Of a stretch of DNA of 64,000 nucleotides, positions 35,915 through 51,690 are shown piece after piece (the first letter of the stretch is position 1; the number at the start of each line of letters is the position of its first letter). Made by a program: the position numbers and the translations under genes. Where the stretch lies: positions 406 to 64,405 of the forward strand of contig JBFWQE010000013.1 in NCBI GenBank assembly GCA_050249615.1, given 5' to 3'. The DNA comes from Vicinamibacterales bacterium (GTDB taxonomy: Bacteria > Acidobacteriota > Vicinamibacteria > Vicinamibacterales > UBA2999). Below the pieces are notes generated by a model that searched no databases, was not told the origin of the DNA, and saw only the letters and a list, made by a program, of their open reading frames with translations.

Positions 35915-35955
35915 ACGGAGAGATGTCCGAGTGGTTGAAGGAGCACGCTTGGAAA
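35915..35955 (+). repeat. attL: 41-bp direct repeat = orphan 5' half of tRNA-Ser(GGA)
   Basis: ACGGAGAGATGTCCGAGTGGTTGAAGGAGCACGCTTGGAAA is identical to 50907-50947. Identity ends at the last base of the anticodon loop. Confidence 0.85.
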
Positions 35956-36235
35956 TCCACCTGGCCGTGCGCGATGGCGTGCTCTCGATTGCGATAAGCG
36001 TTACAGATTCAGGCGCTTAGCGCGAATCGCCTCACGAGCGTCGATCCCCATAAACCACTGTATTTCTCTCGAAATTGATCGGGTCACGTCACGGTTGCGT
36101 CACGATCGGGCGCTGTGACGTCGGGCACGTTCGCGGCATCGTGAACATGGCGCGGGCGTGGACATCGACCGCCAACCTATGCGCCCGGCCTGGGCGAAGG
36201 AGACGGAGTTCGAAGGCACTTGGCGTCGGACCTCC

Positions 36236-37066
36236 TCACCTCTCCCCGGCCACGCTGGCCAGTGCGGCCTTCAGCACGTGAACGCAGAGCGTGGCGGTGT
36301 GGTGGTCGGGTGTGAAGCCTGACACCATCTGCTCGTACGGGTGAATGTAGTTGCGGAACTCTCGAAGGCCGTGGCCGAACTTCTTGACGTCCGGCTTGAG
36401 GATGCCGATTTCGCAGGCCACATCGATGAACTGCGCGAGCGTCCACTCGTGGAACTTCCTGACGCTGGCGTCCTGGTTTCTTGGGCTGGCGGATGCTTTG
36501 TTGAAGCGCGCCGGTTCCTTCTGGGCGGCACCGAGAAGGACCGCTTCGAGCACGCTCCCGCACAGGAAGATCACTGACAGGTGGGCCCCGGCGGCCAGTG
36601 CCTTGTCGGCTTCCGCCAAGCGGCTTTCAATGATGGGCACGACCTGCTGCTCGATGGGGAGTTTCTGAACGTTTGGAGCGGCGAAATGACGGCTCAGGAA
36701 CTCCGCGGCAGACTGCTCCGGAGGCGGTGGTGCCGCTCTTCCTTGAAGGCGCGCGACGATGGCGCGCGTCTTGGTCAGAGCGGCGGAATCGATCTCGCGC
36801 TTGTTGAGATCGCAATCCGCCTCGTAGGCGTCGAGCAGTTCGGACAAGACCGAACCGACGACGGCGTCCGGCTCGACCTCCCAGAAGGCGCGAAGCTTCT
36901 TGGCCTTGGATGTACCGTACTTCTGATATGGGCCGTGGTGGATGTCGCGCTTGTGGCGCTTGAAGAACGTGTCGAAGGTCGCGTCCGTGAAGTCGAGGAC
37001 GTAGCCGCCACCCATGCCAAGCACCTTCTCGACGTAGCGCTTCTCAATATCGGTGAGACTGCTCAT
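36236..37066 (-). CDS. hypothetical protein with HEPN-like C-terminal domain (AbiJ-like architecture?)
   Basis: The start MSSLTDIEKRYVEKVLGMGGGYVLDF is at ATG 37066. The helical C-terminus has HLSVIFLCGSVLEAVLLGAA and GHGLREFRNYIHPYEQ (an R-x6-H / RNxxH-type motif). It lies 105 nt downstream of gajB on the same strand. Confidence 0.5.
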   Translation of the reverse strand: MSSLTDIEKRYVEKVLGMGGGYVLDFTDATFDTFFKRHKRDIHHGPYQKYGTSKAKKLRAFWEVEPDAVVGSVLSELLDAYEADCDLNKREIDSAALTKTRAIVARLQGRAAPPPPEQSAAEFLSRHFAAPNVQKLPIEQQVVPIIESRLAEADKALAAGAHLSVIFLCGSVLEAVLLGAAQKEPARFNKASASPRNQDASVRKFHEWTLAQFIDVACEIGILKPDVKKFGHGLREFRNYIHPYEQMVSGFTPDHHTATLCVHVLKAALASVAGER

Positions 37067-37171
37067 GAGCGGGTTCCGGGCGTGTCGTTGGGAGGGTGAG
37101 CGGTCTTCCGCGCTACCGCCAGATCCTTGTGAAACGCCTTGGACGGCGGATTGACGACCAACGGCGGCCAA

Positions 37172-39088
37172 CTACGCACTGGCCTCAACGAGCCCCATCT
37201 CCACTAGGAACCGCGACGGCGCCTTCTTCCAACCTCGATAGCTCTTGGCTCGGCTGAGCACGAGGCATTCTTTCGTACGGGTGATGGCGACGAAGCAGTT
37301 GCGACGCTCTTCCTCCATCTCCGGGCTCCCGTCGCCCTTCTGGCGACTCTGGAAGGAGGGCATGATGTCTTCCGCCAGTCCGATCACGTACACGCGCTCA
37401 AACTCCCGCCCCTTCGCCCCGTGTATGGTCATAAGCGTAACAGAGTGCGGTCTCGGCGCTGGCTCCTTTGAGCGCAGCTGCAACTCCTGCAGGAACTGTT
37501 CGAGCGGTGCGCCCGTTCCAATGTGGCTCGCGATGTCTCGGCTAAGGCCGCGCCACGCAGCCATGTCTTCAGCCACATCCGATTCGTCCGACGCGGCGTT
37601 CTGTCGGTCCGACAACTCCTGAAGTATGCCGCTCATGTCAATCTGGATCGTCGACGCAGTGCTTGTCGTTTGCACGTACTGAAGCAGTGCATCCGATGGC
37701 GACGACGCGCCACTCAGACGCGCAGACTCCAACCACGTTGCAAGGTAGCTGAATCCCGTTGATTCGGCATCCGCGACCACCTGCGCGCCGTCGACGGATG
37801 TCCCCGCCATTCGATTGAACGAATCGACGAGCACCGACAGGTTCCGCCTGTCCAATGGTCTGACCGTCTGCCGCAAGACGGCAACAAGCCACCTGAACTC
37901 CGGCGACAGAAAATCGTCGCGACGTTGCGCGACTCCTGCGGCTACACCTGCGTCATGCAATGCTCTGTTCATCCGGTCTAGGAGGGCCTTCGTTCGCGCA
38001 AGGACCGTCGTCTGGTCCCAGGAGCCTCGGCCGGTGCTCGCGATCTCCGTGGCAATTCCGACGGCCTCGTCATCCTCCGTCTCGAACACGCGCAGCTGAA
38101 TCTGCTCAGAGTCCGGGTACAGGCCGCTCGTCTTTCCCGCGACTAGTGGCCCCTTGGTTGCCGTACGTTGAACGTTATAGACAACGAGCCGATTGGCCGC
38201 CTCTACGATCGCTGCGGGGCACCGATAGTTCGTCGGCAGCTGGATGACCTGAGCACCGAAGTCGGCGATAAATGCTTGAATCTGCTGGTAGCTGGCTCCA
38301 TTCCATCCGTAGATGATTTGGTCATCATCTGCAACAGCGAACACGTTCTGAAAGGAGTTGGCGGCAAGACTACGGAGGAGAGAGTACTGGGCACGATTCG
38401 TGTCCTGGAACTCATCTATCAGCCAGTACGGATACGACCGCCGATAGCGCGTCGCGATTGCCGGAAACGCCACCAGAAGACGATGGGCCTGAAGGATGAG
38501 GGAGTTGAAGTCCAATGCGTTCAGCCGGCGCAACTCCTCTTCGTAGACCCGGTACGTGACTGCAATCCGCTTGGCTTCGGGTGCCCTCCCCAGCGCGCTC
38601 TCTGCTTCCTCCGGCTCAATGAGGCTCGCCTTGAGTCGGTCGATGACTGGCAGGTGCCTGACGTCGTCCGGGTCACTCTGTCCTTCGGCCCTTGCCAAGG
38701 CATCCTCCAGGACAGCTTTTCGATCTGCATCTGTCGAGTAGATTGCAAAGTCGGACTGAATCCCGATATGGACGCCGTGCTGTCGCAGTACCTGACCGCA
38801 GAAACCGTGAAATGTCGCGATGTTGGCGCGCTCTTCCAGGCCCGGCACGAACGTAGCGACGCGGCTCTTCATCTCGTCGGCCGCCTTGTTCGTGAACGTG
38901 AGAGCGAGAATCCGGAACTGCTGATCACGCGAACGGTCGAGCAGGTCGGCAATGCGACACGTCAAGACCTGCGTCTTGCCCGAACCGGGGCCCGCAAGCA
39001 CGAGCAGTGGTCCCTGGTCCCACTGTACCGCTTGACGCTGAATGTCGGTGAGTTGCGCAAGAGCGGCGTTGAACGGCGACTCGGTCAT
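37172..39088 (-). CDS. gajB: UvrD/PcrA/Rep-family helicase, Gabija GajB
   Basis: Walker A LAGPGSGKTQVL, motif II LIDEFQDTNRAQY, a VLARTK-type motif and C-terminal TIHGAKGREFERVYV. The start overlaps the gajA stop (ATGA at 39085-39088). Confidence 0.8.
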   Translation of the reverse strand: MTESPFNAALAQLTDIQRQAVQWDQGPLLVLAGPGSGKTQVLTCRIADLLDRSRDQQFRILALTFTNKAADEMKSRVATFVPGLEERANIATFHGFCGQVLRQHGVHIGIQSDFAIYSTDADRKAVLEDALARAEGQSDPDDVRHLPVIDRLKASLIEPEEAESALGRAPEAKRIAVTYRVYEEELRRLNALDFNSLILQAHRLLVAFPAIATRYRRSYPYWLIDEFQDTNRAQYSLLRSLAANSFQNVFAVADDDQIIYGWNGASYQQIQAFIADFGAQVIQLPTNYRCPAAIVEAANRLVVYNVQRTATKGPLVAGKTSGLYPDSEQIQLRVFETEDDEAVGIATEIASTGRGSWDQTTVLARTKALLDRMNRALHDAGVAAGVAQRRDDFLSPEFRWLVAVLRQTVRPLDRRNLSVLVDSFNRMAGTSVDGAQVVADAESTGFSYLATWLESARLSGASSPSDALLQYVQTTSTASTIQIDMSGILQELSDRQNAASDESDVAEDMAAWRGLSRDIASHIGTGAPLEQFLQELQLRSKEPAPRPHSVTLMTIHGAKGREFERVYVIGLAEDIMPSFQSRQKGDGSPEMEEERRNCFVAITRTKECLVLSRAKSYRGWKKAPSRFLVEMGLVEASA

Positions 39089-40998
39089 GCCAGCCCTCTC
39101 AGTTCTCCGATCGCGTCGCGAAACTGCTGAAGAGTGCGTGTCGCCAGCGCGGGGTCAGTGGCCAGGCGCTCGGCGAGTTTGGCAGCGACATCGATCTTGC
39201 ACTTCTCGAGTCGTGTCTGGAGAATCGGCAGACCGATCGTGCCGGCGTCGGCGTGCCCGAGTTCCTGCAGGATGGCGCGAAGCTCAGGTTCCAGGCCGTC
39301 CGCCAAGAGTTGCTGCTCCAGATGGCCCCCAGCCAGAGTACGGCACCGCTGAGCCACAAACCCAGGGTCAAACTGACGATCGGTGATCTTCTGGACGTAC
39401 CCATGGCCAGCGTTGTCGCCATCGAAGACGGCCAGCCACGGGATTGACAGCGCTCGGGCCAGAGCCGCGAACGTGGATGGATGGCCGTTGTTCATGGCAT
39501 CGATAACAGCCACGCCATGTTCATCCAAGTCGTATCCGATCGCCTTGGCAAGCGCGTGAACGATCAGGTACTCCGCTTGTCCTTCCACGAGCATCCAGCG
39601 TCGAGCGAAGAAGATCTCACCTCGGATGCGTCGTGCGAAGGTCTCGAGTGACGCCAGTTCGTCGTCCGACATGAACAGCATTGAGCGGTCCTTCAGCTCT
39701 CTCAGGACCCCGTGGATCACTGCCCTGTCAGGGTGCTGTCCATAGACGGTCAGAGTGTCGCGGTATAGAGCCTCGGGAAAGGCGCCGTTGACCGTAAGCG
39801 TCTCCGTCAGTCGGTCGTAGACGAGGAGGCCACCCGACCCCGCCACGACGCCATCGAGGGACGGAACGTGCGGAACGGTGGCTGAGAAGTTCGGGGGCAG
39901 CCAGCTAATCTCGGTGCCGCGCTCAGTCAAACGGACGAGGCGAAGGTCACGAAAGGGGACGTGCGGGACGAAATACGGCGAGTGCGTCGTGATGATCTTC
40001 TGCCCGGGGAGCGCATTCACGTGCGCCCACAATGTCCGGGCAGCCTGTGGATGCAAGTGCGTCTCAGGCTCCTCCAGAGCGAGGGCTGGAACGCTGTCGG
40101 GCTGATACAGCTCGGCCAGCAGGTGCTGGACGAACGCTTGAAAGAGAAAAATGACGGAAAGACTCTGGAGGCCTTGGCCGTGACGCTGCAATGGCAACCA
40201 TGGCCAGTCCGGTTCGTTGCGCAGAATGATCTCTGCCTTCGAGAGCAGATCCCATGCCTTGAGTGGAACAAGGCGGAGGTTGACTCCACCGTCACGGTCG
40301 CGCGCGGCCACCTTCGTGGCTCCGGACAGGGTCGTCGCGACTTGCGCCAGCCTTGGGTCCGCGTCTAGCAGCCTGGTGTTGAGTCGATCAAGTATCTTCT
40401 GGACCCGAGCTTCCAGCGTTGCGGGGATCTTCATCGCCTTTAGAAGACGGCCCCAGAACTGTGATCGCGAGGAGAACTCGTCCTCGGCGTCTCGAAGGGC
40501 ACCGAGGTAGAAGACGGGCAAGTACTCCCAGAAGCGTTCGAGGTTCAGCCGCCGCGTGGCCCCACCGAAGAGCGGAGCTCGAGCCGCGTTCAGGAAGGCC
40601 CAGTCCGCCACGAACTGCTCTTCGCCGGCATTCCACCCCCAGCCCGCCCGCAACGTGATCGAGTTCTGTCCGGTCGCTGGATCGGTCTGGACAATCTGAT
40701 CCAGAGCCTGTTGGACGGCATCTGGCCATTCGCCCGCCGCGCCCTCCTCGGTTCGGAGTTCGATAGCAACTGGAGTCGAGGTTTTCGGGTCGTCAGTCTG
40801 GGTGGCGAGGTGAATGTCGTATTCGGTGAAGCCCGTTCCGCGCTGTCCCCAGCGTCGCGTGAGCACAATTCGGACGGCATCGAGAATTGCCGTTTTCCCC
40901 GCGTTGTTTGGCCCGATGAAGACCGTCGTTTCGCCGAGCTGAACATCGAGCGCCTTTATGGAGCGAAAGTTCTCAATGCGCAGGGATGTGATTCTCAT
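39085..40998 (-). CDS. gajA: OLD-family ATPase-Toprim nuclease, Gabija GajA
   Basis: MRITSLRIENFRSIKALDVQLGETTVFIGPNNAGKTAILDA (ABC/AAA_15 N-terminus), LALEEPETHLHP (Walker B/D-loop) and C-terminal Toprim MLVEGQAEY ... VFDGDNAG. A class-2 OLD nuclease next to UvrD is the Gabija arrangement. Confidence 0.8.
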   Translation of the reverse strand: MRITSLRIENFRSIKALDVQLGETTVFIGPNNAGKTAILDAVRIVLTRRWGQRGTGFTEYDIHLATQTDDPKTSTPVAIELRTEEGAAGEWPDAVQQALDQIVQTDPATGQNSITLRAGWGWNAGEEQFVADWAFLNAARAPLFGGATRRLNLERFWEYLPVFYLGALRDAEDEFSSRSQFWGRLLKAMKIPATLEARVQKILDRLNTRLLDADPRLAQVATTLSGATKVAARDRDGGVNLRLVPLKAWDLLSKAEIILRNEPDWPWLPLQRHGQGLQSLSVIFLFQAFVQHLLAELYQPDSVPALALEEPETHLHPQAARTLWAHVNALPGQKIITTHSPYFVPHVPFRDLRLVRLTERGTEISWLPPNFSATVPHVPSLDGVVAGSGGLLVYDRLTETLTVNGAFPEALYRDTLTVYGQHPDRAVIHGVLRELKDRSMLFMSDDELASLETFARRIRGEIFFARRWMLVEGQAEYLIVHALAKAIGYDLDEHGVAVIDAMNNGHPSTFAALARALSIPWLAVFDGDNAGHGYVQKITDRQFDPGFVAQRCRTLAGGHLEQQLLADGLEPELRAILQELGHADAGTIGLPILQTRLEKCKIDVAAKLAERLATDPALATRTLQQFRDAIGELRGLA

Positions 40999-41489
40999 GA
41001 TGTGCTGTCCAACGGCCCTACGCTAGTGAAACAACAGCACGGGCGAGTGCGAGTGGCGTCGACCTCGAACGTCAGCCATGGACTTTTGCCCTCGCCGAGT
41101 TGCCCTGACAATCCGGCGGCGATCTCGGGTGCCAGCGCGTCACGGACGACAGCCGTGCACTTCGCTTCGGCTCGTTCCATCCACTTGCCCGCCTGGCCCT
41201 TGCTCAAGGCAGCCATCGCGTCGGGTTCGTCGAGGCCGAGGAACGCCGGCGCCAGCGAGAGGTCGATGTCCTCCGGAAACCGATTGATGACGTCGAGGGC
41301 TTTCGAGAGCGACGTACCGCCCTTGAAGGCGATGGCATCTCGAAAGGACGACTGGAACAAGATGCTGAGGAGCCAGCACACCCAGAAGCCCTTCTCGACG
41401 ATTACGGGAGCCAGTCCTCGACGGGCTGCGGCTTCGTCGATGTAGACGTTGCGCTCGGCAGCCGGCAGCTCGAGGAACGCCAGCGTCAT
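40995..41489 (-). CDS. AbiEii/AbiGii-family nucleotidyltransferase toxin, C-terminally truncated (probable remnant)
   Basis: EKGFWVCWLLSILF...FKGGTSLSKALDVINRFPEDIDLS are the NTase motifs I/II. It is only 164 aa against ~250-300 expected. The tail TRTRPCCCFTSVGPLDSTS looks like read-through into the gajA leader. ATGA overlaps occur at both ends. Confidence 0.6.
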   Translation of the reverse strand: MTLAFLELPAAERNVYIDEAAARRGLAPVIVEKGFWVCWLLSILFQSSFRDAIAFKGGTSLSKALDVINRFPEDIDLSLAPAFLGLDEPDAMAALSKGQAGKWMERAEAKCTAVVRDALAPEIAAGLSGQLGEGKSPWLTFEVDATRTRPCCCFTSVGPLDSTS

Positions 41490-42094
41490 GACGCCAGATC
41501 CTTCAGCGGACGGTGCATCCATTCTGGCGCCAGCGTCAGGTCCTTGAGCAGCGAGCGCCGATCGTCGGCTGGCAGCGTGCGCCGGAGTCTGGCGATTCGT
41601 TCCGGCGTGATGCACTCCGGGCCGAGGTGACGGAACGCCTGAATAACGAGCCCAGACGGACGTCCGGCAGCCGCCATATTGCGCGGCGTGGTGCGTCGAA
41701 GCTGCAGCGTGATTGGGCCGACCCGGACCACTCGGCTCGGGCCATCGGTGAGGAAAACCACCTTCGCGGGCACATGCTCCGAAAGGCCCAGCAGATTCGC
41801 GGCATAGGCTCCGGACGGCTGAAGTCTGACGCGATCACGCCCGGCCATCGCCTTCGCGAGGGCCTCTGGCGTCGGAGAGAGCTGGCCCAAGCTCGGGTGC
41901 AGCTTCGGAAAGTCGTACAGGCCTCGGCCGAGCTGACGGATCGTCCCTGCCTCCGTCTGGCGCCGTAACGCCGAGGTAATGGCCGGACGGCTGGCCAGGT
42001 CCAGGAAGTGGCGCGGGGTGAACACCCACCCCCTCCCGTGCCCCCTGATGCGGTCAAGTATCGACTTTTCAGCCGATTGTGGGCGCTTCGCCAT
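41486..42094 (-). CDS. AbiEi-family (type IV TA) antitoxin / transcriptional regulator
   Basis: The start MAKRPQSAEKSILDRIRGHGRGWVFTPRHFLDLASRPAITSALRRQTEAGTIRQLGRGLYDFPK is the AbiEi_4/DUF6088-type N-terminal wHTH. The stop overlaps the abiEii start. Confidence 0.8.
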   Translation of the reverse strand: MAKRPQSAEKSILDRIRGHGRGWVFTPRHFLDLASRPAITSALRRQTEAGTIRQLGRGLYDFPKLHPSLGQLSPTPEALAKAMAGRDRVRLQPSGAYAANLLGLSEHVPAKVVFLTDGPSRVVRVGPITLQLRRTTPRNMAAAGRPSGLVIQAFRHLGPECITPERIARLRRTLPADDRRSLLKDLTLAPEWMHRPLKDLAS

Positions 42095-42174
42095 GAAGAT
42101 TCGAAGCAAAAGATGCCATAAATTTGCTGCACAAGGAAGCTCGATGGACCGCCGCAAGGTCAGCGGGGCCCGTT

Positions 42175-42213
42175 CCGCGGTTATCCGCGGTTATATAACC
42201 GCGGTGCGGTTAT
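42175..42213. promoter_or_regulatory. candidate AbiEi operator: CCGCGGTTAT half-sites (direct, direct, inverted, direct)
   Basis: ccgcggttat ccgcggttat ataaccgcgg tgcggttat includes the perfect 20-bp palindrome CCGCGGTTATATAACCGCGG (42185-42204), ~90 nt upstream of abiEi. Confidence 0.5.
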
Positions 42214-42224
42214 TTTCGCCCGCC

Positions 42225-43931
42225 TCACGAAGGGCCGGACCGTTCGTACCACGCCCCCTTCTTGCTGCCGCGCTGGACCAGACGGCCATCCTCGGTCAGG
42301 CGCGTGAGGAGCCGGTACGCCTGGTCTGCCGACAGCCTACAGAGCTCCGCCACCTCGGCTCTGGTGATCCGTCCGTGTCGTTCGACGTACTGCAGCACCA
42401 TCTGTTCCTGCTGCAGCGGTTCGAATCCCCGCTGGCGCACGTACGCGGCCTTGTCGCCAAGGGCTCGATACGTCGCAGCCGAAAGGTGCCAGGTGCGTCC
42501 CTTCTTCTGGCCACGCTCTTCGACGAAGCCAGCCTCCACCAGGCGGTGTAGCACGGCGCGCGCGTCACCGTCCGGCTTCTGAATGAGCCGGCCGACATCG
42601 GGTGTAGTCAGGCTGCGCTCCTGCCACAACGCATTCAGCACGAGCAGCTCGTCGAGGCTCAGGTCGCGCTCGTGCTGCGCCTCGGTGACGAGCAGCCTCA
42701 CGAAGTCCAGATTCGCCTCGCCACCTGGAATGACCACCACCACGCCGGTCGCGTCGCTGCGTGCGTAGGATGGCGCTGGCCGGCCGTTTCGCAACTGCTC
42801 GAAAAAGATCGTGTCGATCCCGCGCGCGGTCCGTTCGACGATGCCGGCCCGTTTGAACGCGTCAGCAAGAAGCGGATTGCGCGGGCGAGGGGCCGTGACC
42901 AGCAAGTTGTCAAGGCGAACGCCTTCCGGAAAACCGCCGGGGCTGCTGATCTCGATACGGTCCAAGTGCCACTGAAAGTGCACCGCACCGAGGCGCTGAT
43001 AGTCACGGTGGATCAGCGCGTTGGCCAGCGCCTCACGCAGGGCCCGCTCCGGGTAGTCCGGCACGCCCACGCGCAGCAGGCCCACCATCAGCTCCTCTTC
43101 GCGATTGCGCGCACGAATCCGCGCTTCGATCTCTTCCATCACCCGGAGCAGGGGCCAGCGGAAGAAATCGTTGACCTCGACATCGAGGCCACGCAGCACC
43201 TGGAACGCGACCTCATTGCCGGGTACGAATCGACGAAGAGCATCGTCCTTCCCGAAGAGGAGCACGGCAGCCAGGCGCAATGCTCGTGGGCTCCCGTTGG
43301 CATCAACCACGCCGAGGGCCTTCGCCAATTCCAAGTCAGGCAGGTTGAGAAGGGATTCGTCGCTGCGTCCCCGACGTTCGCGGACACTTCGTCGGAAGCG
43401 CTCGAACTCAAGCGGGTCCAAATCCTCCCACCGCGCGCCGCCCACCACCTGCCCTGAAGGGTCTAGCTGACCCCGGTCCGCCTGCTGCGACTGGATGGCA
43501 AGAGCGTCCATTGGAGCGCACGCCGGGCGTCCGTCACCGCCCAACGTACGGCGCAGGAACTGTCCGTCACTCGTGCAGACGACGTGCTGTTGTGGCGGCA
43601 CCTCGACCACCAGAACGGACATACCGTCCAGCAAGTGCTCTTCGACTTGCACGGCCAGCGCCGGCCGCGTTCGACCCGCGACGAGGGCGGCGACTCTGTC
43701 GAGATCCGTCGTCGCGTCGTGCCGGGGACGAGCGCCGGTGACTGTGCCGTCGTCCTCCACACCCACGAGCAGCCAACCTGGTGCGACGGCGGTCCGATTG
43801 GCAAGACAGACGACGGCCTCGACGAGCTCGCGGTCGTTGAGGATCGATCGCTTCTCTCCCTTGAACTCGACATCCAGTGTTTCGCCGCCAGCGATGATGC
43901 GGCGCAGTTGCTTCACGGTCATGGGTATCAC
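42225..43931 (-). CDS. AlbA_2 (Schlafen-like) + HATPase_c_4 + C-terminal wHTH protein (COG2865-type)
   Basis: N-terminal GGETLDVEFKGE...LVEAVVCLANRTA (AlbA_2), mid ALREALANALIHRDY (HATPase_c_4), and C-terminal wHTH repeats (LHRLVEAGFVEERGQKKGRTWHL; LLTRLTEDGRLVQRGSKKGAWY). Confidence 0.75.
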   Translation of the reverse strand: MIPMTVKQLRRIIAGGETLDVEFKGEKRSILNDRELVEAVVCLANRTAVAPGWLLVGVEDDGTVTGARPRHDATTDLDRVAALVAGRTRPALAVQVEEHLLDGMSVLVVEVPPQQHVVCTSDGQFLRRTLGGDGRPACAPMDALAIQSQQADRGQLDPSGQVVGGARWEDLDPLEFERFRRSVRERRGRSDESLLNLPDLELAKALGVVDANGSPRALRLAAVLLFGKDDALRRFVPGNEVAFQVLRGLDVEVNDFFRWPLLRVMEEIEARIRARNREEELMVGLLRVGVPDYPERALREALANALIHRDYQRLGAVHFQWHLDRIEISSPGGFPEGVRLDNLLVTAPRPRNPLLADAFKRAGIVERTARGIDTIFFEQLRNGRPAPSYARSDATGVVVVIPGGEANLDFVRLLVTEAQHERDLSLDELLVLNALWQERSLTTPDVGRLIQKPDGDARAVLHRLVEAGFVEERGQKKGRTWHLSAATYRALGDKAAYVRQRGFEPLQQEQMVLQYVERHGRITRAEVAELCRLSADQAYRLLTRLTEDGRLVQRGSKKGAWYERSGPS

Positions 43932-44085
43932 GCTAGGGGGCCTCTGCCGACCTCACCTTGCCAGTTCCTTAATGATTCTGCTCCAAGTCGCATGCACCCA
44001 CCACGGCCCGAAGCGGCCCGAGAACGGCAGAGGATGAATTGCACCCCGCTCGCGAACCGATCATATTCGCAGCGTAGGTGGCCGT

Positions 44086-45024
44086 ATGTTCGACCGTTAC
44101 GACCCGCGCGACGACGACCGTCAGTACCGAGATCGAGGCCGCGATCTCGATCGCGGTGGCCGCGGCAGCGGCCAAACGTCCGACCGCCGCGAGCGGGACC
44201 CGCGCGACGTCTTCACGCGCGACCTCGACCTGCCACGCGGGCGCGAGCGGGAACGCACCCGAGACCGCGATCGCGTCTACGACATCGACGGCTCCGAAAG
44301 CCGGATGCTAGCGACGGTCGGCTCGTTTCGCGTGGTCGCCGAGCGCGACCTGGCGGCGCTGCGCGACGACGCCCGGAAGCCGCACCAGAGCATCCGTCAC
44401 CTGGAAGACGAGAGTCTGATTCGGCGGTCGCCACTCGATGCCAACGACCGCGCCGTCGTCCTCACCGAGCGCGGCCGGGACCTGCTCGAAGCCAATCGAT
44501 CGCTTCCGCGCGACGAGCGAACACACGAGCCCCGCCAGGAGTTCTACGCCGGCCTCAGGAAGCCGCGCGAGTTGACCCACGATGTGAAGGTCTACCGCGC
44601 CTACGAGCGCTCCGAGGAACGCATCCGTGACTGCGGCGGGCGCGTCCAGCGCGTCGTCCTCGACTACGAGATGAAGCGCGACTACCAGCGTTTCCTGCAC
44701 GAGCGGAATCGCGGCAGGAAGGATTGCGACGGCCGTCCCGATCGCGAGGCCGACGAGATCGTCCACTGGGCGAAGGAGCACGACCTGCCCTACGAGGAGG
44801 ACGGGCACGTGCACTTCCCGGACGCTCGCATCGAGTACGAGGACCGTGATGGCCGTTCACGCTTCGAGGACCTCGAGATCGTGACGCCGCACTATCGCGG
44901 TGCCCACGCCGCCGGCGCGGCGAAGTCCGGCTTCACCTGCTACGTCTCGATGGGGTCCGGCGTTGGCGGACGTGGCGGCGGCAGGGGCGGACGAAGCCCG
45001 CGGATCATGGAGGAGTTCCTGTGA
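44086..45024 (+). CDS. hypothetical wHTH protein with RD/RE-rich N-terminus and RGG C-terminus (replication-relaxation-like?)
   Basis: N-terminus DPRDDDRQYRDRGRDLDRGGRGSGQTSDRRERDPRD...RGRERERTRDRDR, core LATVGSFRVVAERDLAAL...LIRRSPLDANDRAVVLTERGRDLL, and C-terminus GVGGRGGGRGGRS. Confidence 0.45.
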   Translation: MFDRYDPRDDDRQYRDRGRDLDRGGRGSGQTSDRRERDPRDVFTRDLDLPRGRERERTRDRDRVYDIDGSESRMLATVGSFRVVAERDLAALRDDARKPHQSIRHLEDESLIRRSPLDANDRAVVLTERGRDLLEANRSLPRDERTHEPRQEFYAGLRKPRELTHDVKVYRAYERSEERIRDCGGRVQRVVLDYEMKRDYQRFLHERNRGRKDCDGRPDREADEIVHWAKEHDLPYEEDGHVHFPDARIEYEDRDGRSRFEDLEIVTPHYRGAHAAGAAKSGFTCYVSMGSGVGGRGGGRGGRSPRIMEEFL

Positions 45025-46085
45025 GTACGCTGCCGTTGGAGCCGACGCCGCTTCCACCGGAGCCCCAGTTCTGGTTCATCAAGGAGACGAGCGCAGAACG
45101 GCTGCACGCGATATCGGCGTTCGGGTTCACGGACCGGCAGTCGCGCTTTCTCCTGGAGGTCCTCCTGCATTCAGGCGTCTTCCTCGAACGCCAGTACTGC
45201 CAGTTCGCCGGCATCGTCCACGGCCAGAAGAGCACCGACTTCATCAGGAGCCTCGTTGACCGCCAGTTCGCCACGCCCATCGCGCCAGGCAAGCTGCATC
45301 GCGGGCGGATGTTCCACCTGCACTACAAGCCGTTCTGGACCGCCATTCGCGAGCCCGACAGCCGGTTCCGCAAGCGGGCGGCGCTCGGCCGCCTGATCGA
45401 GCGCGTGATGCTGCTCGACGCCGTCCTGGACGATCGCTCGATGGTCTGGCTTGGGCCGTCCACCGACAAGCGTCGGCACTTCACCAGCCACCTGGGTGAC
45501 CGCTTCGATCTCGCTGATCTACCCCGCCTGCAATTCGGCCACGGCCCGCGCCCGACATATCGCCACTTCCCGGACAAGCTCCCGATCGGCGACGACCCGG
45601 AGCGCACCGACCACCACGTCTTCGTCTATCTCGTGACGACGCCGGTGCCGTGGGACTTCAGGCTGTTCCTGCTGCGGCACGTGCCGCTGCTGTGGAAGCT
45701 CAGTCGGTGGACCATCCGGCTGCTGTTTCCGAAGCCCCTGATGAAAGCCGAACGAGTCTACCTGCACGCCGCCCGCGAGCATCTGATGGGAACGACGGGC
45801 GGGCGCAACGTGAGCATGATCGAGCGGATGTTCAAGGAGCGCCTGCGGCAGACCCACCCCAATCCCGGGCCTTCGTACACCGGGTACCAAGAGGACGGGC
45901 GAGTGTTCTCCGGGCCGCGCTTCCAGGCCCTCTATCGCCAGTGGTTGGTCGACCCCGAACGCACCCTCTGGATGGCCGATTCCCATGTCCTCGCGGACGC
46001 GATCGAGCGCGGGTTGGGCCGTGTCGAGTGCGTCGAGCTGACGCGCCAGTATCTGCATCTCTCACCCCTGGTCGACATCGCCTGA
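45021..46085 (+). CDS. hypothetical protein (second wHTH-like, replication-relaxation-like?)
   Basis: GTG at 45021 overlaps the upstream TGA (GTGA). FTDRQSRFLLEVLLHSGVFLERQYCQFAGI resembles the Replic_Relax-type wHTH opening. 354 aa with no other recognisable motif. Confidence 0.45.
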   Translation: MSTLPLEPTPLPPEPQFWFIKETSAERLHAISAFGFTDRQSRFLLEVLLHSGVFLERQYCQFAGIVHGQKSTDFIRSLVDRQFATPIAPGKLHRGRMFHLHYKPFWTAIREPDSRFRKRAALGRLIERVMLLDAVLDDRSMVWLGPSTDKRRHFTSHLGDRFDLADLPRLQFGHGPRPTYRHFPDKLPIGDDPERTDHHVFVYLVTTPVPWDFRLFLLRHVPLLWKLSRWTIRLLFPKPLMKAERVYLHAAREHLMGTTGGRNVSMIERMFKERLRQTHPNPGPSYTGYQEDGRVFSGPRFQALYRQWLVDPERTLWMADSHVLADAIERGLGRVECVELTRQYLHLSPLVDIA

Positions 46086-46128
46086 GCGGCCTCAAGGACC
46101 GAGCGGGCACCGAGTCAGCGAGTGCGTT

Positions 46129-47160
46129 TCAGCCCCGCATTGCCTGACCGTCCGGTCGCGGATATGCCTTCTCCGCCATCGCGAAGATCGGTGCCAAGGG
46201 CCAGACTGAGCCCTCGGCCTTGAACTCGAACGAGGCTCGCTCCTCCTTCAGTTCCGCCAACCGACCGTAGAGCTCACCCGAGTCGCGGATGGGCAAGAAC
46301 ACGAGGACCGGGCCCATCTGAACGCCCCAGCAAACAGGCAGTTCGGGTCTGGAAATACGAAAGACGCGTCGCTCCGAGAAGGGCAGCGGCATCGGCAACC
46401 GGAACGAGAATGCGTCGATCCATTCGTGGGTTGGCTCTTGAATCTGCCGTCGGACTGGCCCCAGAAACGGATGCATGGCGTACCGGTAACCCAAGAGCGC
46501 GAAGACGGCCAAATACGCCGACTTCAACCAGCTGACCTTCGCTCGTCTGTCGTTGGGATCTGTCAGTTGAAACGACAGCCGAAAAGGGGCAGCCAAGGCC
46601 GGTGCCCGCGTGACGCCGTCGAAGTACTCCGCGACACGACTCAGAGTCGCCGGAGCCCCGCCCAGCATGGTGATGCGATTCTCTCCCGCCGCGCTCGTCT
46701 CAAACTTGGCTGGCAGTTCGTGGTCTCCGACGTGCAGCCGGCCGTGCACCGGCTCCTGACCGGCAAGGGCTCTGATGCTGCGCTCGACGCGATGAGCCAT
46801 GGCATCGATGCCGTGTCCGGCAGTGCTGTTACATGGCTTGCAGGTGAGCACCAACGGACGCCCGTCTGAGTGCCTGGGAGGGACGTCCTCGATGGTCAGG
46901 AGGGTTCCCAACATCGCCGCGGTGAACAGCTTCATCCGCGCTCGGCCGTCAGCCTCGGTGACGGCGCACAGGGGGCACGCGTAGGCTGGCGGAATCGGAT
47001 CGCCGGTGGCTGTTGTCAGTTGTCCAAACGTGAGCCCGAGGTCGCGTACGCCCGCCTCGAACCAGACTTGCCGCCGCTTGTCTCTCGAAGCTCTCCCCAC
47101 TGACCGATGATAGTCTGCAACAGCGTCACACGGACCCTTCGTTCGGTAAGGCCGGGACAA
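46129..47160 (-). CDS. HNH_5-like zinc-ribbon protein with His-to-Asp change at the catalytic position
   Basis: CPLCAVTE...LTIEDVPPRHSDGRPLVLTCKPCNSTAGHGID parallels the CxxC...EH(V/I)xP...CxxCN layout of HNH_5 endonucleases, but reads ED instead of EH. 343 aa. Confidence 0.5.
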   Translation of the reverse strand: MSRPYRTKGPCDAVADYHRSVGRASRDKRRQVWFEAGVRDLGLTFGQLTTATGDPIPPAYACPLCAVTEADGRARMKLFTAAMLGTLLTIEDVPPRHSDGRPLVLTCKPCNSTAGHGIDAMAHRVERSIRALAGQEPVHGRLHVGDHELPAKFETSAAGENRITMLGGAPATLSRVAEYFDGVTRAPALAAPFRLSFQLTDPNDRRAKVSWLKSAYLAVFALLGYRYAMHPFLGPVRRQIQEPTHEWIDAFSFRLPMPLPFSERRVFRISRPELPVCWGVQMGPVLVFLPIRDSGELYGRLAELKEERASFEFKAEGSVWPLAPIFAMAEKAYPRPDGQAMRG

Positions 47161-47289
47161 CCCCGGGGGACAACCTCGATTTCGGAGGTCGTCCCCCTGA
47201 GCGCTTGCTCAACGACCTGGCCGCGTGCGCAGCCGGCGTTGGCAGCCACCCGCCCTGGAGCGCGACAATCGCCTGTTCGCGCGCCACTT

Positions 47290-47459
47290 CGCGGCACAGC
47301 AGCCAGCCGCCGCTCTCGACGGGCGGCGCTCTGTGCCGCCCCTGTAGGCGCAAGAGTAGACGCCAACACAGGACACCATGGCGTGAGCGACCCCGGTTGG
47401 CGCGCTCGATTCCGTCCCGCGCGTGTCCGGAAGGGTCGCTCACGCCATGGCTGTCAGTG
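47290..47459. other. structured non-coding segment: two long hairpins in a 637-bp gene-free gap
   Basis: GCGGCACAG...CTGTGCCGC (47290-47339, with inner CCGCC/GGCGG). A perfect 18-bp inverted repeat CCATGGCGTGAGCGACCC / GGGTCGCTCACGCCATGG (47376-47393 / 47442-47459) encloses a 48-nt loop. Confidence 0.6.
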
Positions 47460-47797
47460 TCGCTCTCGGTGTCGGTACGGGCCTGGATGTGGCTGGTGCG
47501 CGCCGCTATCGTGCGGGAGATACTGGTCCCGAACGTGGCCAGGTTGTGCGGTAGGTTTCGCGACGGATAGCGCCGAATTGCCAGTGCGGAGAACAGGCTG
47601 ATTCCGGACCGGTTTCCGAGCCGCTGCCATCACGCATTCGATGCTCGATCTGTGCTCGGCGCCATCAAGGCGCGTCGCTTCGCTCGGCCCGCGTGACTGT
47701 GAGCGGCTCCGGCCTTGACCGCGCCTGCGCGCAGTCGGTGATGGGCAACTGCGTGATGGCTTGGCGTGCGCGCCGGAATCGGCCAGCGGACTCTGCT

Positions 47798-48673
47798 CTA
47801 CTTGCGCAGTTCGCGTTGGCAGACCGTATCGATGCGCTCGGCAAGGAAGGCGGCCAGCTTCCGGCTCTCGTCGAAGGCTGACGCGCGCAACAGTTCGATC
47901 ATGTCTTCGTACGTCGCGACAGCCAGCCGATCGCCGTACTCCGGCAGGAGAACCTGTTCCCTGAACGCACTCACCTGTGCGCGCAGAACAGCACCCACAC
48001 GGTCCGGCACAATCGCCAGCGTAGCCCACGCTGCGCGTCCCGACGATGCAGCGAACAGGACGTTGCGCATCAACTGGAAGTTCGGCCCCCGGAACGGACA
48101 CACCTGGCCGCTGGCCTGTGTTGCGAACACACGCTCCCGAAACAGGGACCGCCCCTTGCGCCAGTACGAACGGGCTCCCCGAGCGCCGTCGGCCACTTCG
48201 AGGCGACAGTTCGACGCTGTGCCGGTCTTCAGGTCCGAGCCGGGGCCGTAATGGCCGCCACAGTGTTTTGGAAATTGACTGCAGGGGCCGAATCCTTCGC
48301 GCGCATCCATGATGAACTTGGACTCGATGCACACGGCGCTGGATTCCGAACGGCAGAACACGTCCAGCGAAGTCGCCGTCACTCGACCCGACTCGTCCAG
48401 AATGCGACGATCGGAATGCTCCAGCAACAGTTCCCACGGGCCGGTGAGGCCGCGTTTCGGGAAGTGGCGGGTCAGAAGGGCCTGCAGAATCACCTGGCCG
48501 TCGGCCGCGTGGCGCAAGGAGCCAAACGCGGACACGCAGAACACCTGTGACGACTGCTCGCTCAGCGGAGAGTGCCACCGAATGCTCAGGCCTTCTGACT
48601 CCGTCAACGCGCCAGCCAGGTATGTGGCGTTCGTCTGGACTTGGTGCCAGCGCTCAGCGGGATGGGTGCGCAT
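47798..48673 (-). CDS. PD-(D/E)xK nuclease-like protein
   Basis: The start MRTHPAERWHQV is at ATG 48673. TSLDVFCRSESSAVCIESKF fits D-x(n)-E-x-K. 291 aa, no methyltransferase partner nearby. Confidence 0.5.
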   Translation of the reverse strand: MRTHPAERWHQVQTNATYLAGALTESEGLSIRWHSPLSEQSSQVFCVSAFGSLRHAADGQVILQALLTRHFPKRGLTGPWELLLEHSDRRILDESGRVTATSLDVFCRSESSAVCIESKFIMDAREGFGPCSQFPKHCGGHYGPGSDLKTGTASNCRLEVADGARGARSYWRKGRSLFRERVFATQASGQVCPFRGPNFQLMRNVLFAASSGRAAWATLAIVPDRVGAVLRAQVSAFREQVLLPEYGDRLAVATYEDMIELLRASAFDESRKLAAFLAERIDTVCQRELRK

Positions 48674-49199
48674 TGCGCACGGTTGTAGCACATCAGTTGG
48701 GAGGAGCAGTGCTCCTCGTGTCGATCTTGCCCATTGACCTCGACCCGGAGCAGCGGTAGCCTGTCCTCTCGTCCGTGCCCCACTGCACACCTGCCGCGCG
48801 AGCGACACTCGGCGCGGGTTGCTGACGGCCGGCGCCTTCAGGGCTCCCGCCAGCAACACACTTCCTGACTAGCACGGCTTCGAACTCCAGCGCGCGTACC
48901 GAGTGCGGCGTCTCGGAGTTCCACCATCGCTCGCGGCGTGCCACAACGGCCTGCCGCGGCGGTGTTCGGGAGCCCGGTTGTCCCACTGACGATTCAAGAA
49001 GGCAGCACGTCAGCGCACCGAGGGCTTCGGAAAGCATCGGCCTCAGGCCGTGCATGAACGCGGCGCCCATCGCCCCGCGTTCTCGGTGTTCGGCGTTACG
49101 CCGGCATCTCGCGCAACTGCCTGCGGCGCGTTGACCCAGGTCACCGCGTCCGAGCGCGCCATTCGTGGACGTTCGGCAACAAGCATTGCGAGGTGCACC

Positions 49200-49424
49200 A
49201 TGAGGCCTTGGTTGACGGTCGGCGAAGGCGCTGACTACGCGAACGTGAGTCGGGACACGATCTACACCGCGTGCGAAGGAAAGGAACTCCGGCACGTGCG
49301 GATCAGCGGACGACGGACGATCCGGTTGCGGCCGATCTGGATCGACGCCTGGCTCGAAGAGCACGCACGGGAACCGCGAAGCGCGCGCGGCACGATGCAC
49401 CTGCAGAACGGAGCGGCATCATGA
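49200..49424 (+). CDS. excisionase-family HTH DNA-binding protein
   Basis: MRPWLTVGEGADYANVSRDTIYTACEGKELRHVRISGRRTIRLRPIWIDAWLEE is the Xis/AlpA/MerR-type pattern. Confidence 0.7.
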   Translation: MRPWLTVGEGADYANVSRDTIYTACEGKELRHVRISGRRTIRLRPIWIDAWLEEHAREPRSARGTMHLQNGAAS

Positions 49425-49672
49425 ACGCGCAGGTCATTCACCACGGCACCCGCGCGCTCACCGAGCGCGAGGTCTCCGACCTGCTCGGCCTGTCGGTGGC
49501 TACGCTGCGCGCGTGGCGGCATCGAGGCCAGGGGCCGCGGTTCCTACGCCTCGGACGGGCCGTACGCTACCTCCCGGCAGACCTTGAGAAGTTCGTCCGT
49601 GCCAGCACCGTTGACGCCAGTGCGGAACCGTCGCCTGATCGGCAGACCGGCATCGAGGAGTTGCGGTCATGA
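49421..49672 (+). CDS. AlpA/HTH_17-like DNA-binding protein
   Basis: ATGA overlaps occur with both neighbours. LTEREVSDLLGLSVATLRAWRHRGQGPRFLRLGRAVRYLPADLEKFV. Confidence 0.7.
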   Translation: MNAQVIHHGTRALTEREVSDLLGLSVATLRAWRHRGQGPRFLRLGRAVRYLPADLEKFVRASTVDASAEPSPDRQTGIEELRS

Positions 49673-51690
49673 GCCTCTGGAAGCGCGGACGCCAGTACTG
49701 GGCAGACTTCACGGTGGACGGTCGGCGCTACCGCAAGCGCCTCGGCACGACGAACCTCCAGGTCGCGAAGCAGAAGGAACGGCAGCTCATCGAGGATGCC
49801 GGCCTCGGAGGCGTGGCCACGCACGCGCAGGGGCCGAAGCGCCTCTTCGAGGCCGTGGACGCCTACATCGAGGGGAAGCGCCTGCACTGCTCGCCGCGCA
49901 CCATCGAGTTCGAGGAGGAGCGCCTGATTACTCTGAAGCGCTGCTTCGGTGACGTGCCGCTAACCGCGATCACGGCCAAGGCGATTGCCGACTACCAGCG
50001 CCAGCGCCACGAGGCCGGCAAGGCCAACCGCACCATCAACATGGACGTCGGCGTGCTGTCGCGCGTGCTCAAGTCGTGCGGCCGGTGGCGCGCGCTGGCC
50101 GACCATGTGCGCAACCTGCCCGAGCGTCAGCGACCGGTCGGGCGGGCGCTGACGCCCGAGGAGCGCAAACGGCTCTTCGACGCAGCGGCGTCGAATCCGG
50201 AGTGGGAGCACGTCTACTGCGCGGCTGTCGCTGCTGCCAACACGTCGATGCGCCCGGTGGAGGTCAAGCACCTCCGCCGGCGCGACGTCGATCTCGAGAA
50301 GAAGCTCCTGTACGTCCGCCGGAGCAAGAACGAGACGAGCCACCGCGTCATCCCGCTCAACGCGTCGGCGCTGCAGGCCATCACCAGGATGGTCGAACGC
50401 GCCGATCTGCTCGGCCACACCGAGCCCAATCACTACCTCTGGCCTGCCTGCCAGTGGGGCCGCTACGACCCGACGCAGCCGATGCTGAAGTGGGACACAG
50501 CTTGGCGGGCCCTGCGTGACGCCGCTGGGCTGCCGCGGTTCCGGTTCCACGACCTCCGGCACACGGTGATCACCGAACTCGCGGAACTCGGCGTGGCTGA
50601 TCACGTGCTGGAGTCGATCAGCGGACACCTATCGAGGCGCATGTTGGAGCACTACTCGCACATCCGCATCGACGCCAAACGGCAGGCCCTCGACGCACTG
50701 GACGAATCACGGCGAGACGGCCACAATGGCGACGGCACGAGTGGAGACGCGCACGCGGACAGGAGCGGCGACAGCACTGAAAGACCCAAGAACGGCGAGG
50801 AAGTCCCGCTGCTCGTGGCACTCGCCGAGGGGCTTACGTCACAGTTACGTCACAGTTTGCGTTTGGCGGGATCGCCGCCCTCCGCTAAACTATTGATTCC
50901 ACTTGCACGGAGAGATGTCCGAGTGGTTGAAGGAGCACGCTTGGAAAGCGTGTGTAGGGGAAACTCTACCGTGGGTTCGAATCCCACTCTCTCCGCCATC
51001 CTTCGCGCCACCAAGCCCATTCGCGGCACGCCGCCGCGGGATCTCATGCGAATCTCATGGCTCGCTCACGATTCGGTGAGGACTTCGCGGCCGGCCTTCC
51101 GTCACAGTGGCGCATATGACACCCACTGTGACGCCCTCCGTGAAGGCTCTCGCCCTCATCGCCCTCGGACTGGCCATTGCCGGGATGGGCCTTTACGTCG
51201 CCAACGCCGACGACGCGCCCGGCGCGGCGGTCATCGGATTCGTGCTGATGCTGGCCGCGGTCCTGTTCGCCGTCAGAACGGCACGGAACCGGCTGCCCAC
51301 CTGGGCTGGGCGCACTGCCCTGGCGGTCGGCGTTCTCACTGCGGCGTTCGCGGCATTCCTCACCCATGTGGTCACCGCGGCAGCGCCGCTCTTCCCGCAA
51401 GCGCGCGACGTGCCATCGGTCGGCGATTCGGCACCGTCGCCGCAATATGCGGGGGCCGTCGAGCGCGCGCGGGAGTTCGTGCGTGCAGCCGTCCTCCAGC
51501 AGAACCTGCCAGGGGTGTCGGTGGCGGTCGGTGCCGGCGGCACGGTCGCCTGGTCGGAAGGGTTCGGCTGGCGGGACATCGACACGCGGACGCCGGTGAC
51601 ACCGGATACCCGATTCAACATCGGCACGGCGGCGTCCGCGGTCACAGCCGCCGCCGTGTCGCCGCTCCGGCTGACCAACACCGGCGTTGA
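49669..51690 (+). CDS. tyrosine recombinase / phage-type integrase (catalytic core ~49669-50720; the ORF has no stop until 51690)
   Basis: N-terminal SAM-like domain with AIADYQRQR. Catalytic residues RPVEV (Arg), HDLRHTVITELAE (HxxR), GHLSRRMLEHYSH (His...Tyr). The ORF then reads through attR and the tRNA-Ser gene and overlaps the next gene out of frame. Confidence 0.85.
   Translation: MSLWKRGRQYWADFTVDGRRYRKRLGTTNLQVAKQKERQLIEDAGLGGVATHAQGPKRLFEAVDAYIEGKRLHCSPRTIEFEEERLITLKRCFGDVPLTAITAKAIADYQRQRHEAGKANRTINMDVGVLSRVLKSCGRWRALADHVRNLPERQRPVGRALTPEERKRLFDAAASNPEWEHVYCAAVAAANTSMRPVEVKHLRRRDVDLEKKLLYVRRSKNETSHRVIPLNASALQAITRMVERADLLGHTEPNHYLWPACQWGRYDPTQPMLKWDTAWRALRDAAGLPRFRFHDLRHTVITELAELGVADHVLESISGHLSRRMLEHYSHIRIDAKRQALDALDESRRDGHNGDGTSGDAHADRSGDSTERPKNGEEVPLLVALAEGLTSQLRHSLRLAGSPPSAKLLIPLARRDVRVVEGARLESVCRGNSTVGSNPTLSAILRATKPIRGTPPRDLMRISWLAHDSVRTSRPAFRHSGAYDTHCDALREGSRPHRPRTGHCRDGPLRRQRRRRARRGGHRIRADAGRGPVRRQNGTEPAAHLGWAHCPGGRRSHCGVRGIPHPCGHRGSAALPASARRAIGRRFGTVAAICGGRRARAGVRACSRPPAEPARGVGGGRCRRHGRLVGRVRLAGHRHADAGDTGYPIQHRHGGVRGHSRRRVAAPADQHRR
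50907..50947 (+). repeat. attR: 41-bp direct repeat (5' half of the intact tRNA-Ser)
   Basis: Identical to 35915-35955. Two direct TTACGTCACAG arm-type repeats lie at 50834-50855. Confidence 0.85.
50909..50998 (+). tRNA. tRNA-Ser (GGA)
   Basis: GGAGAGATGTCCGAGTGGTTGAAGGAGCACGCTTGGAAAGCGTGTGTAGGGGAAACTCTACCGTGGGTTCGAATCCCACTCTCTCCGCCA has anticodon loop TTGGAAA, a long variable arm, a GGTTCGAATCC T-arm and an encoded CCA. Confidence 0.9.

Follow-up and report, generated by a model that had tools for sequence, protein, structure and literature searches.

We examined a 64,000-nucleotide (nt) stretch of DNA from a Vicinamibacterales bacterium (positions 406 to 64,405 of contig JBFWQE010000013.1, assembly GCA_050249615.1; hereafter the window), and in it a non-coding gap that separates an HNH_5-like gene from REase-ARP, a gene for a PD-(D/E)xK protein. 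We propose that this gap is the origin of transfer (oriT) or origin region of a mobilisable, defence-carrying island integrated at a tRNA-Ser gene, and possibly its replication origin too; we put the probability of this reading at roughly 45%. The initial annotation had taken the gap for a functional, structured non-coding element, and this is borne out by blocks of it that are kept in about 49 related loci and by compensatory pair changes in one of them, block A. It had also suggested that the gap and the two nucleases form one defence or addiction module, which the comparison contradicts, because there are loci with the gap and neither gene, and loci with one of the genes and no gap. The gap was placed at 47161-47797; it exists, but its extent is about 47101-47797, because the HNH-like gene starts at GTG 47100.

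The evidence that carries our proposal comes from related loci. A DNA-pattern scan of one genome per species with the 18-nt arm of an inverted repeat in the gap (block B) found 66 loci, about 45 of them in Acidobacteriota, mostly metagenome-assembled genomes (MAGs) of Vicinamibacterales, and the latter have other gap blocks in common as well. Outside Acidobacteriota, isolated matches to the 18-mer were set aside as chance, with about 17 expected in 596 Gb and no other block shared. A scan of viral contigs with the same arm pattern returned nothing, and searches for loci with the HNH-like protein returned one locus from a metagenome scan and none from a genome scan. In about 49 related loci, order and orientation are fixed on one strand: two backbone genes that we call p312 and p354, then blocks D, C, B, and A, then cargo, two HTH_17 genes, and an integrase gene. 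The backbone of the window has this same order, with a cargo slot between block A and the first HTH_17 gene. In these loci, a repeat-rich non-coding region stands behind p354 in a constant orientation, directly following that gene.

The two nuclease genes behave differently from this backbone. In blastn comparisons of related islands, homology runs from the tRNA gene to window position 48721-48771, breaks off, and picks up again at precisely 47760, where the first base pair of block A lies, to continue through the gap as far as 44086. REase-ARP is the only gene in the slot so defined (47761-48720), and it is carried by five of the roughly 49 loci (the window, L004, L047, L051, and L071). In other loci the slot is filled by an Exo_endo_phos gene (L001), by the pair UPF0175/DUF3368 (L006-L008), or by a gene for an unknown protein of 500 aa (L013), and in L049 it is all but empty. 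The HNH-like gene is found only in 13 loci (L001-L013) and is absent from all of the roughly 45 Acidobacteriota loci of the 18-mer scan. In islands without it, block D lies 15-25 nt past the stop codon of p354, so we interpret the gene in the window as an insertion of about 1 kb between that stop codon and block D. Blocks A-D stand beside p354 and p312 without either nuclease gene in about 36 other loci; conversely, no gap sequence accompanies the homologues of the HNH-like protein (L009-L011) or of REase-ARP (L083, L084) that occur in other contexts, and REase-ARP homologues in other genomes have unrelated neighbours. The gap is therefore kept without homologues of either nuclease, and the link between gap and genes fails. 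Judged from these comparisons, REase-ARP and the HNH-like gene are interchangeable, independent cargo in two hotspots that flank the gap, not partners of it. The second hotspot is suggested by insertions at the site of the HNH-like gene in L035 (block B at 2119, p354 at 4183-5058) and L056, where 2-3 kb of extra DNA lies between block D/B and p354.

Some loci depart from the common pattern. An Acidobacteriota chromosome (L016) has two A-B-C copies in opposite orientation within 8 kb (476-977 and 6525-7059), which may be two islands inserted close together. Other islands (L021, L071, L050, and L054) lie on contigs binned as Bifidobacteriaceae, Acidimicrobiales, or Gemmatimonadota; either these are mis-binned mobile elements or the host range extends beyond Acidobacteriota.

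The gap gives no sign of coding capacity, as the initial annotation had stated. When it was compared by tblastx with six related gaps, all six frames matched about equally. Open reading frames (ORFs) anchored at two CCATGG sites range from 2 to more than 134 aa and are not conserved, and indels between related islands are not multiples of three. Conserved blocks instead alternate with spacers that cannot be aligned. Folding of the gap is strong on both strands, with z-scores of -6.6 for the minus strand and -7.2 for the plus strand, each from only 20 dinucleotide shuffles.

The most elaborate of the conserved blocks is block A (47625-47761, minus strand), a 137-nt multi-helix element with an outer stem P1 (47752-47761/47625-47634) followed by P1b, P2, and P3. 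It is highly conserved in 41 copies (alignment A2), in which 93.8% of cells are paired and 13 pairs change on both sides; at one P2 pair, for example, 14 sequences show G-C in place of A-U. Column shuffling, a control that ignores phylogeny and is therefore support, not a probability, reached the observed value in 0 of 500 cases, and slid controls were only 25-41% paired. In P1, P1b, and P2 read on the minus strand, G·T exceeds A·C by 26 to 6, which points to the minus strand of the window as the strand that folds. The apical part contains an invariant GCGAAGC mini-hairpin, a motif that forms a very stable mini-hairpin in DNA and that we treat as a lead only. Two copies (L030, 2142-2298; L045, 685-839) have an additional GC-rich insertion of 40-45 nt in the apical loop (A2 columns 77-120), with the outer helices intact where they are covered.

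Covariation across homologous gaps thus supports pairing in block A, but none of the 24 pairs predicted in blocks B and C covaries. Block B is the perfect 18-bp inverted repeat of the initial annotation (47376-47393/47433-47450; arms CCATGGCGTGAGCGACCC and GGGTCGCTCACGCCATGG). The repeat is real, but its loop is 39 nt rather than 48 and it ends at 47450 rather than 47459. Its arms are nearly invariant across 45 loci, with no compensatory pair, and the 18-mer has only these two sites in the window, where 0.3 matches would be expected even with three mismatches. Block C (47321-47341) is a nearly invariant hairpin, GGGCGGC-N7-GCCGCCC, recovered with RNAalifold from an alignment of 45 sequences (A3). 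A 9-bp nested hairpin had been described at 47290-47339; its arms are present in the window (47291-47299/47331-47339), but the unit that is conserved is the local hairpin of block C. Sequence around blocks B and C has dropped to about 70% identity, and invariance without covariation amid such flanks fits sequence-specific recognition by a protein.

Block D (47154-47197) consists of three GGGACRACC units, two direct and one inverted, and includes a 13-bp hairpin at 47165-47197. The hairpin had been noticed at 47164-47197, and we recover it with a 7-nt loop and 13-nt arms of 92% complementarity. This loop is reverse-complemented, relative to blocks A and B, between islands of the window type (47165-47197) and of the L049 type (L049, 1900-1932); judging from the sequences, either an inversion of the hairpin has taken place or the symmetric stem is the only part that matters. 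A Guanidine-II match to hairpin D was rejected (E 0.36, below the gathering score, second hairpin absent). Between blocks B and A lies a poorly conserved spacer (47451-47624) that falls into two length classes, with B-to-A distances of about 237 or 320 nt. In L008, an IS3-family element (HTH_Tnp_1 and rve; 3194-4365) sits inside this spacer, and in L071 the spacer is down to about 28 nt; it therefore appears dispensable.

The two proteins encoded beside the gap give our proposal its mechanistic content. The p354 gene (45021-46085, plus strand) is predicted to encode a protein with a winged helix at its N-terminus and, besides, an α/β domain whose fold resembles Replic_Relax. Its AlphaFold2 model has a predicted local distance difference test score (pLDDT) of 82 and a predicted template modelling score (pTM) of 0.83. 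The N-terminus matches MarR-like entries in the PDB, and the only significant match of the model in BFVD is gp146 of Bacillus phage G (E 6.5e-4, probability 1.0, 266 aligned columns). This phage protein is a genuine member of Replic_Relax (PF13814, E 4e-25). On the strength of this model, p354 appears to work like a Replic_Relax protein, while at the sequence level it falls outside that family. The p312 gene (44086-45024, plus strand) encodes a disordered N-terminus rich in Arg and Asp, a winged helix, and the conserved segments VVLDYE(L/M)KRDYQ and FPDARIEYE (alignment A5), which by their sequence are a candidate PD-(D/E)xK site. It has weak matches to MarR and winged helix-turn-helix (wHTH) families, and two of 20 members touch Replic_Relax at E of about 0.1, far under the cut-off. 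Both proteins are widespread: no Pfam domain is found in any of the more than 1669 homologues of p354, and the p312 family has 1951 representatives at 50% clustering. Neither found anything useful in Pfam, NCBIfam, PHROGs, PADLOC, or PDB sequences. We considered p354 and p312 as paralogues and dropped the idea, as BLASTP and hhalign show no similarity between them. Replic_Relax corresponds to MobC of CONJscan, the MOBC family of relaxases (PMC5357655), and has been placed in the PD-(D/E)XK superfamily or fold (PMC3424549). TraX of pAD1, the prototype of this family, carries a winged helix at its N-terminus; the direct repeats to which it binds lie 70-120 bp from nic (PMC12857230).

From these elements, we infer the following course of events. 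The integrase and HTH_17 proteins would excise the island. Then p312 and p354, each a winged helix with a predicted nuclease-like domain and the latter with a fold like that of Replic_Relax/MOBC relaxases, would bind the invariant repeats (the GGGACRACC copies in block D, the block C hairpin, and the inverted repeat of 18 bp in block B) and would nick one strand. The minus strand, once single-stranded, would fold into block A, and the folded block would either be recognized for initiation or termination of transfer or prime complementary-strand synthesis in the manner of a single-strand origin. Binding, nicking, and transfer are postulated here, as is a helper conjugation system, which would be required because the island has no type IV coupling protein (T4CP) or type IV secretion system (T4SS).

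Several results weigh against this proposal. PF13814 is matched by none of 18 p354 members and by none of ten more distant p312 relatives, with p312 itself under the cut-off, and when p312 and p354 were aligned by hhalign with the TraX-like MOBC relaxase of pTEF1, the E values (0.15 and 0.27) were not significant. The structural match between p354 and gp146 is moderate (template modelling scores 0.40/0.49, root-mean-square deviation 8 Å) and involves a single protein, and to our knowledge no role has been demonstrated for phage Replic_Relax proteins. A tblastn search of plasmids with p312 and p354 gave no match, and Pfam scans found no coupling protein or T4SS gene in the island. The covariation and strand bias of block A fit single-stranded DNA (ssDNA) and RNA alike. 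Finally, two genuine RNA libraries (X39 and X40) hold contigs with related blocks A and B.

That last point leads to an alternative that we regard as possible though rather doubtful, namely that the gap encodes one or more structured non-coding RNAs (ncRNAs) of the island backbone. Block A would then be an RNA domain of about 137 nt transcribed from the minus strand, or blocks D-C-B-A would be the 3' untranslated region of a p312-p354 operon, and the RNA would regulate excision, copy number, or expression of island genes. The compensatory changes in block A and its one-strand G·U-type bias of 26:6 are in keeping with this view, and apical helices that vary in length, as through the insertions in L030 and L045, are typical of RNA families. 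Libraries X39 and X40 provide further support, in that a 405-nt metatranscriptome contig spans block B into block A. These contigs carry no strand information, however, and their depth (3-5) is no different from the depth of p312/p354 fragments in X39 and X40; given this parity, read-through transcription or carry-over of DNA would explain them as well as a stable RNA would. RNA runs holding a related island were found, and none of the runs searched for the gap of the window contains it. Consensus scans detected no conserved promoter or terminator within the gap, and upstream of block A on the minus strand there is only variable cargo. The invariance of blocks B and C, with no covariation, would be unusual for RNA helices, and island classes differ in the orientation of the loop of hairpin D. 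Rfam offers no match either: an Rfam 15 cmscan of 45500-51500 at E up to 1 returned only the tRNA-Ser, a spurious plastid motif on that tRNA, and the Guanidine-II hit discussed above. We favor a cis-acting DNA element because blocks B, C, and D are invariant, the backbone has no conserved promoter, the cargo upstream of block A varies, and the neighbouring proteins are Replic_Relax-like.

The remaining explanations each account for a part of what we observe. An improbable one is that block A is a site of recombination that captures cargo, folded as ssDNA like the attC/attI sites of integrons. In all islands compared, the cargo does end where stem P1 begins (47760-47761), the cargo is highly variable, and block A is an imperfect palindrome with strand bias. 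Yet the other cargo boundary has no related repeat and instead a promoter-like TTGACC...TAGCCT, there is one block A per island with no copy brought in by the cargoes, and no comparable structure is present at the second hotspot, which lies between p354 and block D; moreover, the sole recombinase is a tyrosine integrase that targets a tRNA gene and is not of the IntI type. Less credible still is the three-part module of the initial annotation, in which the gap would be the RNA or DNA partner of the two nucleases. It was a natural idea in an island that carries defence genes, and in the window and in L004 all three parts are adjacent on one strand, but the gap is present in about 36 loci with neither gene, REase-ARP is exchanged for unrelated cargo, and the HNH-like gene is optional and, like REase-ARP, gap-free elsewhere. 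We consider it least probable of all that the gap is a decayed, frameshifted gene. One window of a GC frame plot (47400-47600) has a peak like that of GC content at third codon positions (GC3), and long ORFs cross the gap, which are spurious and expected at 66% GC. Against decay stand the equal tblastx signal in six frames, the failure of any ORF to be kept in length or sequence, and blocks that stay near-invariant in about 45 islands among unalignable spacers with non-triplet indels; a pseudogene had been named as a possible explanation of the space, and these findings contradict it.

Comparison with known systems helps to place the oriT/origin reading. As in the pairing of oriT with a MOBC relaxase (TraX and oriT2 of Enterococcus pAD1), a protein with a winged helix and a predicted restriction-endonuclease-like domain, p354, lies beside a repeat-rich non-coding region with invariant repeats spaced tens of bases apart. 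The island differs from such modules in that p354 and p312 are below the Pfam and hhalign thresholds for Replic_Relax and are linked to it by the fold of p354 alone, in that there are two such proteins rather than one, in its hosts, which are Acidobacteriota, and in its unusually long non-coding region (about 600 nt) with a covarying multi-helix element of 137 nt. Like integrative mobilisable elements (IMEs), it has its own integrase and excisionase-like genes and no genes for a conjugation pore. Single-strand origins are of the order of 100 nt or more. A structured single-strand origin (sso) has been demonstrated experimentally in the integrative element ICEBs1 (PMC4595007), and the gap resembles the sso of ICEBs1 and of rolling-circle plasmids as a structured non-coding segment of fixed orientation, with strand-specific pairing, on an integrative element (PMC4595007). 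It differs in that no rolling-circle Rep or HUH relaxase was found, and a priming function is wholly conjectural. With structured RNAs of mobile elements, such as the P4 CI RNA and the integrase- or AlpA-associated motifs known from comparative genomics, the gap shares a covarying structure in the backbone of an int/alpA-type defence island. Unlike these, it has no Rfam match at E up to 1 and no defined transcript, promoter, or terminator was found for it, and half of its conserved helices are invariant rather than covarying.

The island itself spans 15 kb (35915-50947). Its limits are set by the integrase gene that abuts the tRNA and by a pair of 41-nt repeats. The right attachment repeat (50907-50947) lies at tRNA-Ser(GGA) (50909-50998, plus strand; ARAGORN; Rfam tRNA, 58.6 bits), and the left attachment repeat (35915-35955), identical to it over 41 nt, is an exact copy of the 5' part of that tRNA gene, found by blastn of the tRNA region against the window at 100% identity. 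The GC content between about 35 and 51 kb is 60-66%, compared with about 70% elsewhere in the window. Pfam matches identify the left-hand cargo (36236-43931, minus strand), which includes an unknown 311-aa ORF, as a Gabija-like pair made up of a GajB-like UvrD helicase (37172-39088) and a GajA-like AAA_15/OLD-TOPRIM protein (39085-40998), an AbiEii gene (40995-41615) with its partner AbiEi/DUF6088 (41486-42157), and a 568-aa Schlafen AlbA_2/HATPase_c_4/wHTH protein that PADLOC also matches (42225-43931). All of these are on the minus strand, and the Gabija-like, AbiEi/AbiEii, and Schlafen genes mark the island as one that carries defence genes. In related islands, this side is occupied by genes for type I restriction-modification and AbiEi_2 in L001 and L012, and by metabolic genes, among them FA_desaturase and methyltransferase genes, in L006 and L007.

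At the right end, all on the plus strand, are two HTH_17 (AlpA/excisionase-like) genes (49050-49424 and 49271-49672, limits taken from the longest ORFs; PF12728, E 3e-9 and 9.5e-11) and the tyrosine integrase gene (49669 to about 50900; Phage_integrase, E 5e-24). The integrase ORF has no stop before 51690 and runs through the attachment repeat and the entire tRNA-Ser gene, so the C-terminal tail of the protein would differ between the integrated and excised forms; integrase calls in related loci vary in length from 415 to 537 aa. At the other edge of the cargo slot, a candidate promoter (48734-48762, plus strand) with TTGACC, a 17-nt spacing, and TAGCCT probably serves the HTH_17/integrase operon, to judge by its motifs. 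A strict promoter scan made no call at this site, and the corresponding GGTCAA and AGGCTA columns are invariant at the left junction of the cargo slot (alignment A8).

Turning to the cargo that flanks the gap, REase-ARP (47798-48673, minus strand, 291 aa) had been described as a PD-(D/E)xK-like gene with an LDVF...CIESKF motif ending at 48673, and this description holds. The ORF at 47798-48859 (minus strand) matches Pfam REase-ARP (PF22558) over its full length at E 1.8e-12 (47.9 bits, cut-off 27), with the D...ExK signature (LDVF...IESKF) intact in the translation. The start is ATG 48673, as homologues are of about 291 aa and GC3 periodicity sets in only near 48650. The window protein thus resembles other PF22558 proteins in its full-length match above the gathering score and in its retained D...ExK, and differs from REase-ARP elsewhere in being solitary cargo with no adjacent partner. 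In Roseovarius litorisediminis (L083, 159-1909), a REase-ARP homologue is the last of three genes in a small operon, with an RE_endonuc gene (PF19778) and a gene for a 128-aa unknown protein, and in L084 a 106-aa ORF precedes the homologue. A literature search on 'REase-ARP' found no paper.

The HNH_5-like gene (46129-47100, minus strand), the optional insertion described above, encodes 323 aa. Its start is GTG 47100 rather than TTG 47160, as indicated by a conserved N-terminus, RDKRRQVWFEAG, and by alignments. The HNH_5-like identity proposed earlier stands in part: remote homologues with 27-38% identity carry HNH_5 (PF14279) and the zinc motif is kept, but the window protein itself is below Pfam significance, with no match at E up to 0.1. 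Searches of NCBIfam, PHROGs, PADLOC, and PDB sequences with this protein gave nothing useful. The alignment reads CxxC...E[H/D]VPP...CxxCN...D, in which the two CxxC pairs, the Asn, and the Asp are invariant. The substitution of ED for the EH general-base motif, which had been noted in the window protein, extends to its whole subfamily, as the residue before VPP is Asp there and His in most PF14279 members. The AlphaFold2 model (pLDDT 91.6) found nothing better than E 0.2 among PDB folds, and a C-terminal part of about 200 aa has no structural match. In all HNH-carrying loci, a TATCAT/TATGAT box (GACTAT(C/G)ATC; window 47101-47125, minus strand) lies 6-8 nt upstream of the GTG or ATG start and, by its sequence and position, may be a -10 element of a leaderless mRNA. 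In L009-L011, a 74%-identical copy stands alone between MacB/FtsX-type ABC transporter and glyoxalase genes (L009, 4836-5804), and homology with the window is restricted to the HNH-like ORF, which points to independent mobility of the gene, as in homing-endonuclease-like genes. The CxxC...CxxCN motif and solitary intergenic insertion in unrelated contexts are shared with ββα-Me nucleases of the HNH_5 family (PF14279) and free-standing, homing-endonuclease-like genes. The differences are a score under Pfam significance, the change of the general-base His to Asp, and the structurally unmatched C-terminal part.

One variant of the island (L050, 3980-4700) was found mostly in sequencing runs of people. 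Human sequencing data may often be contaminated with a common variant of this soil-bacterial element.

Our findings bear on how defence genes move among an abundant group of soil bacteria. Acidobacteriota are among the most abundant bacteria in soil, and we know of few mobile elements that have been characterized in them; the literature we searched held no description of an island family with blocks A-D, p312, and p354. The case is also a caution, because three parts that lie side by side in one genome looked like a module and, once compared across loci, proved separable. To judge by the counts of p354 homologues (more than 1669) and p312 cluster representatives (1951), none of which has a family name, the backbone is apparently very common, and the islands carry a changing set of defence cargo that includes Gabija, AbiE, Schlafen-type, type I restriction-modification, REase-ARP, and toxin-antitoxin genes. 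We suggest, tentatively, that a large family of islands in Acidobacteriota is characterized by blocks A-D and the genes p312 and p354. The two proteins would represent a new, highly diverged, MOBC-like branch of relaxases with a restriction-endonuclease fold, block A would be a new class of structured element, ssDNA or RNA, on which the spread of the islands depends, and the two hotspots would turn the family into a natural shuttle for defence genes in soil bacteria. Recognition of a conserved, probably cis-acting core of 600 bases and of the genes beside it as cargo would provide a handle for finding such islands, for predicting their hotspots, and for testing how genes move in this phylum.

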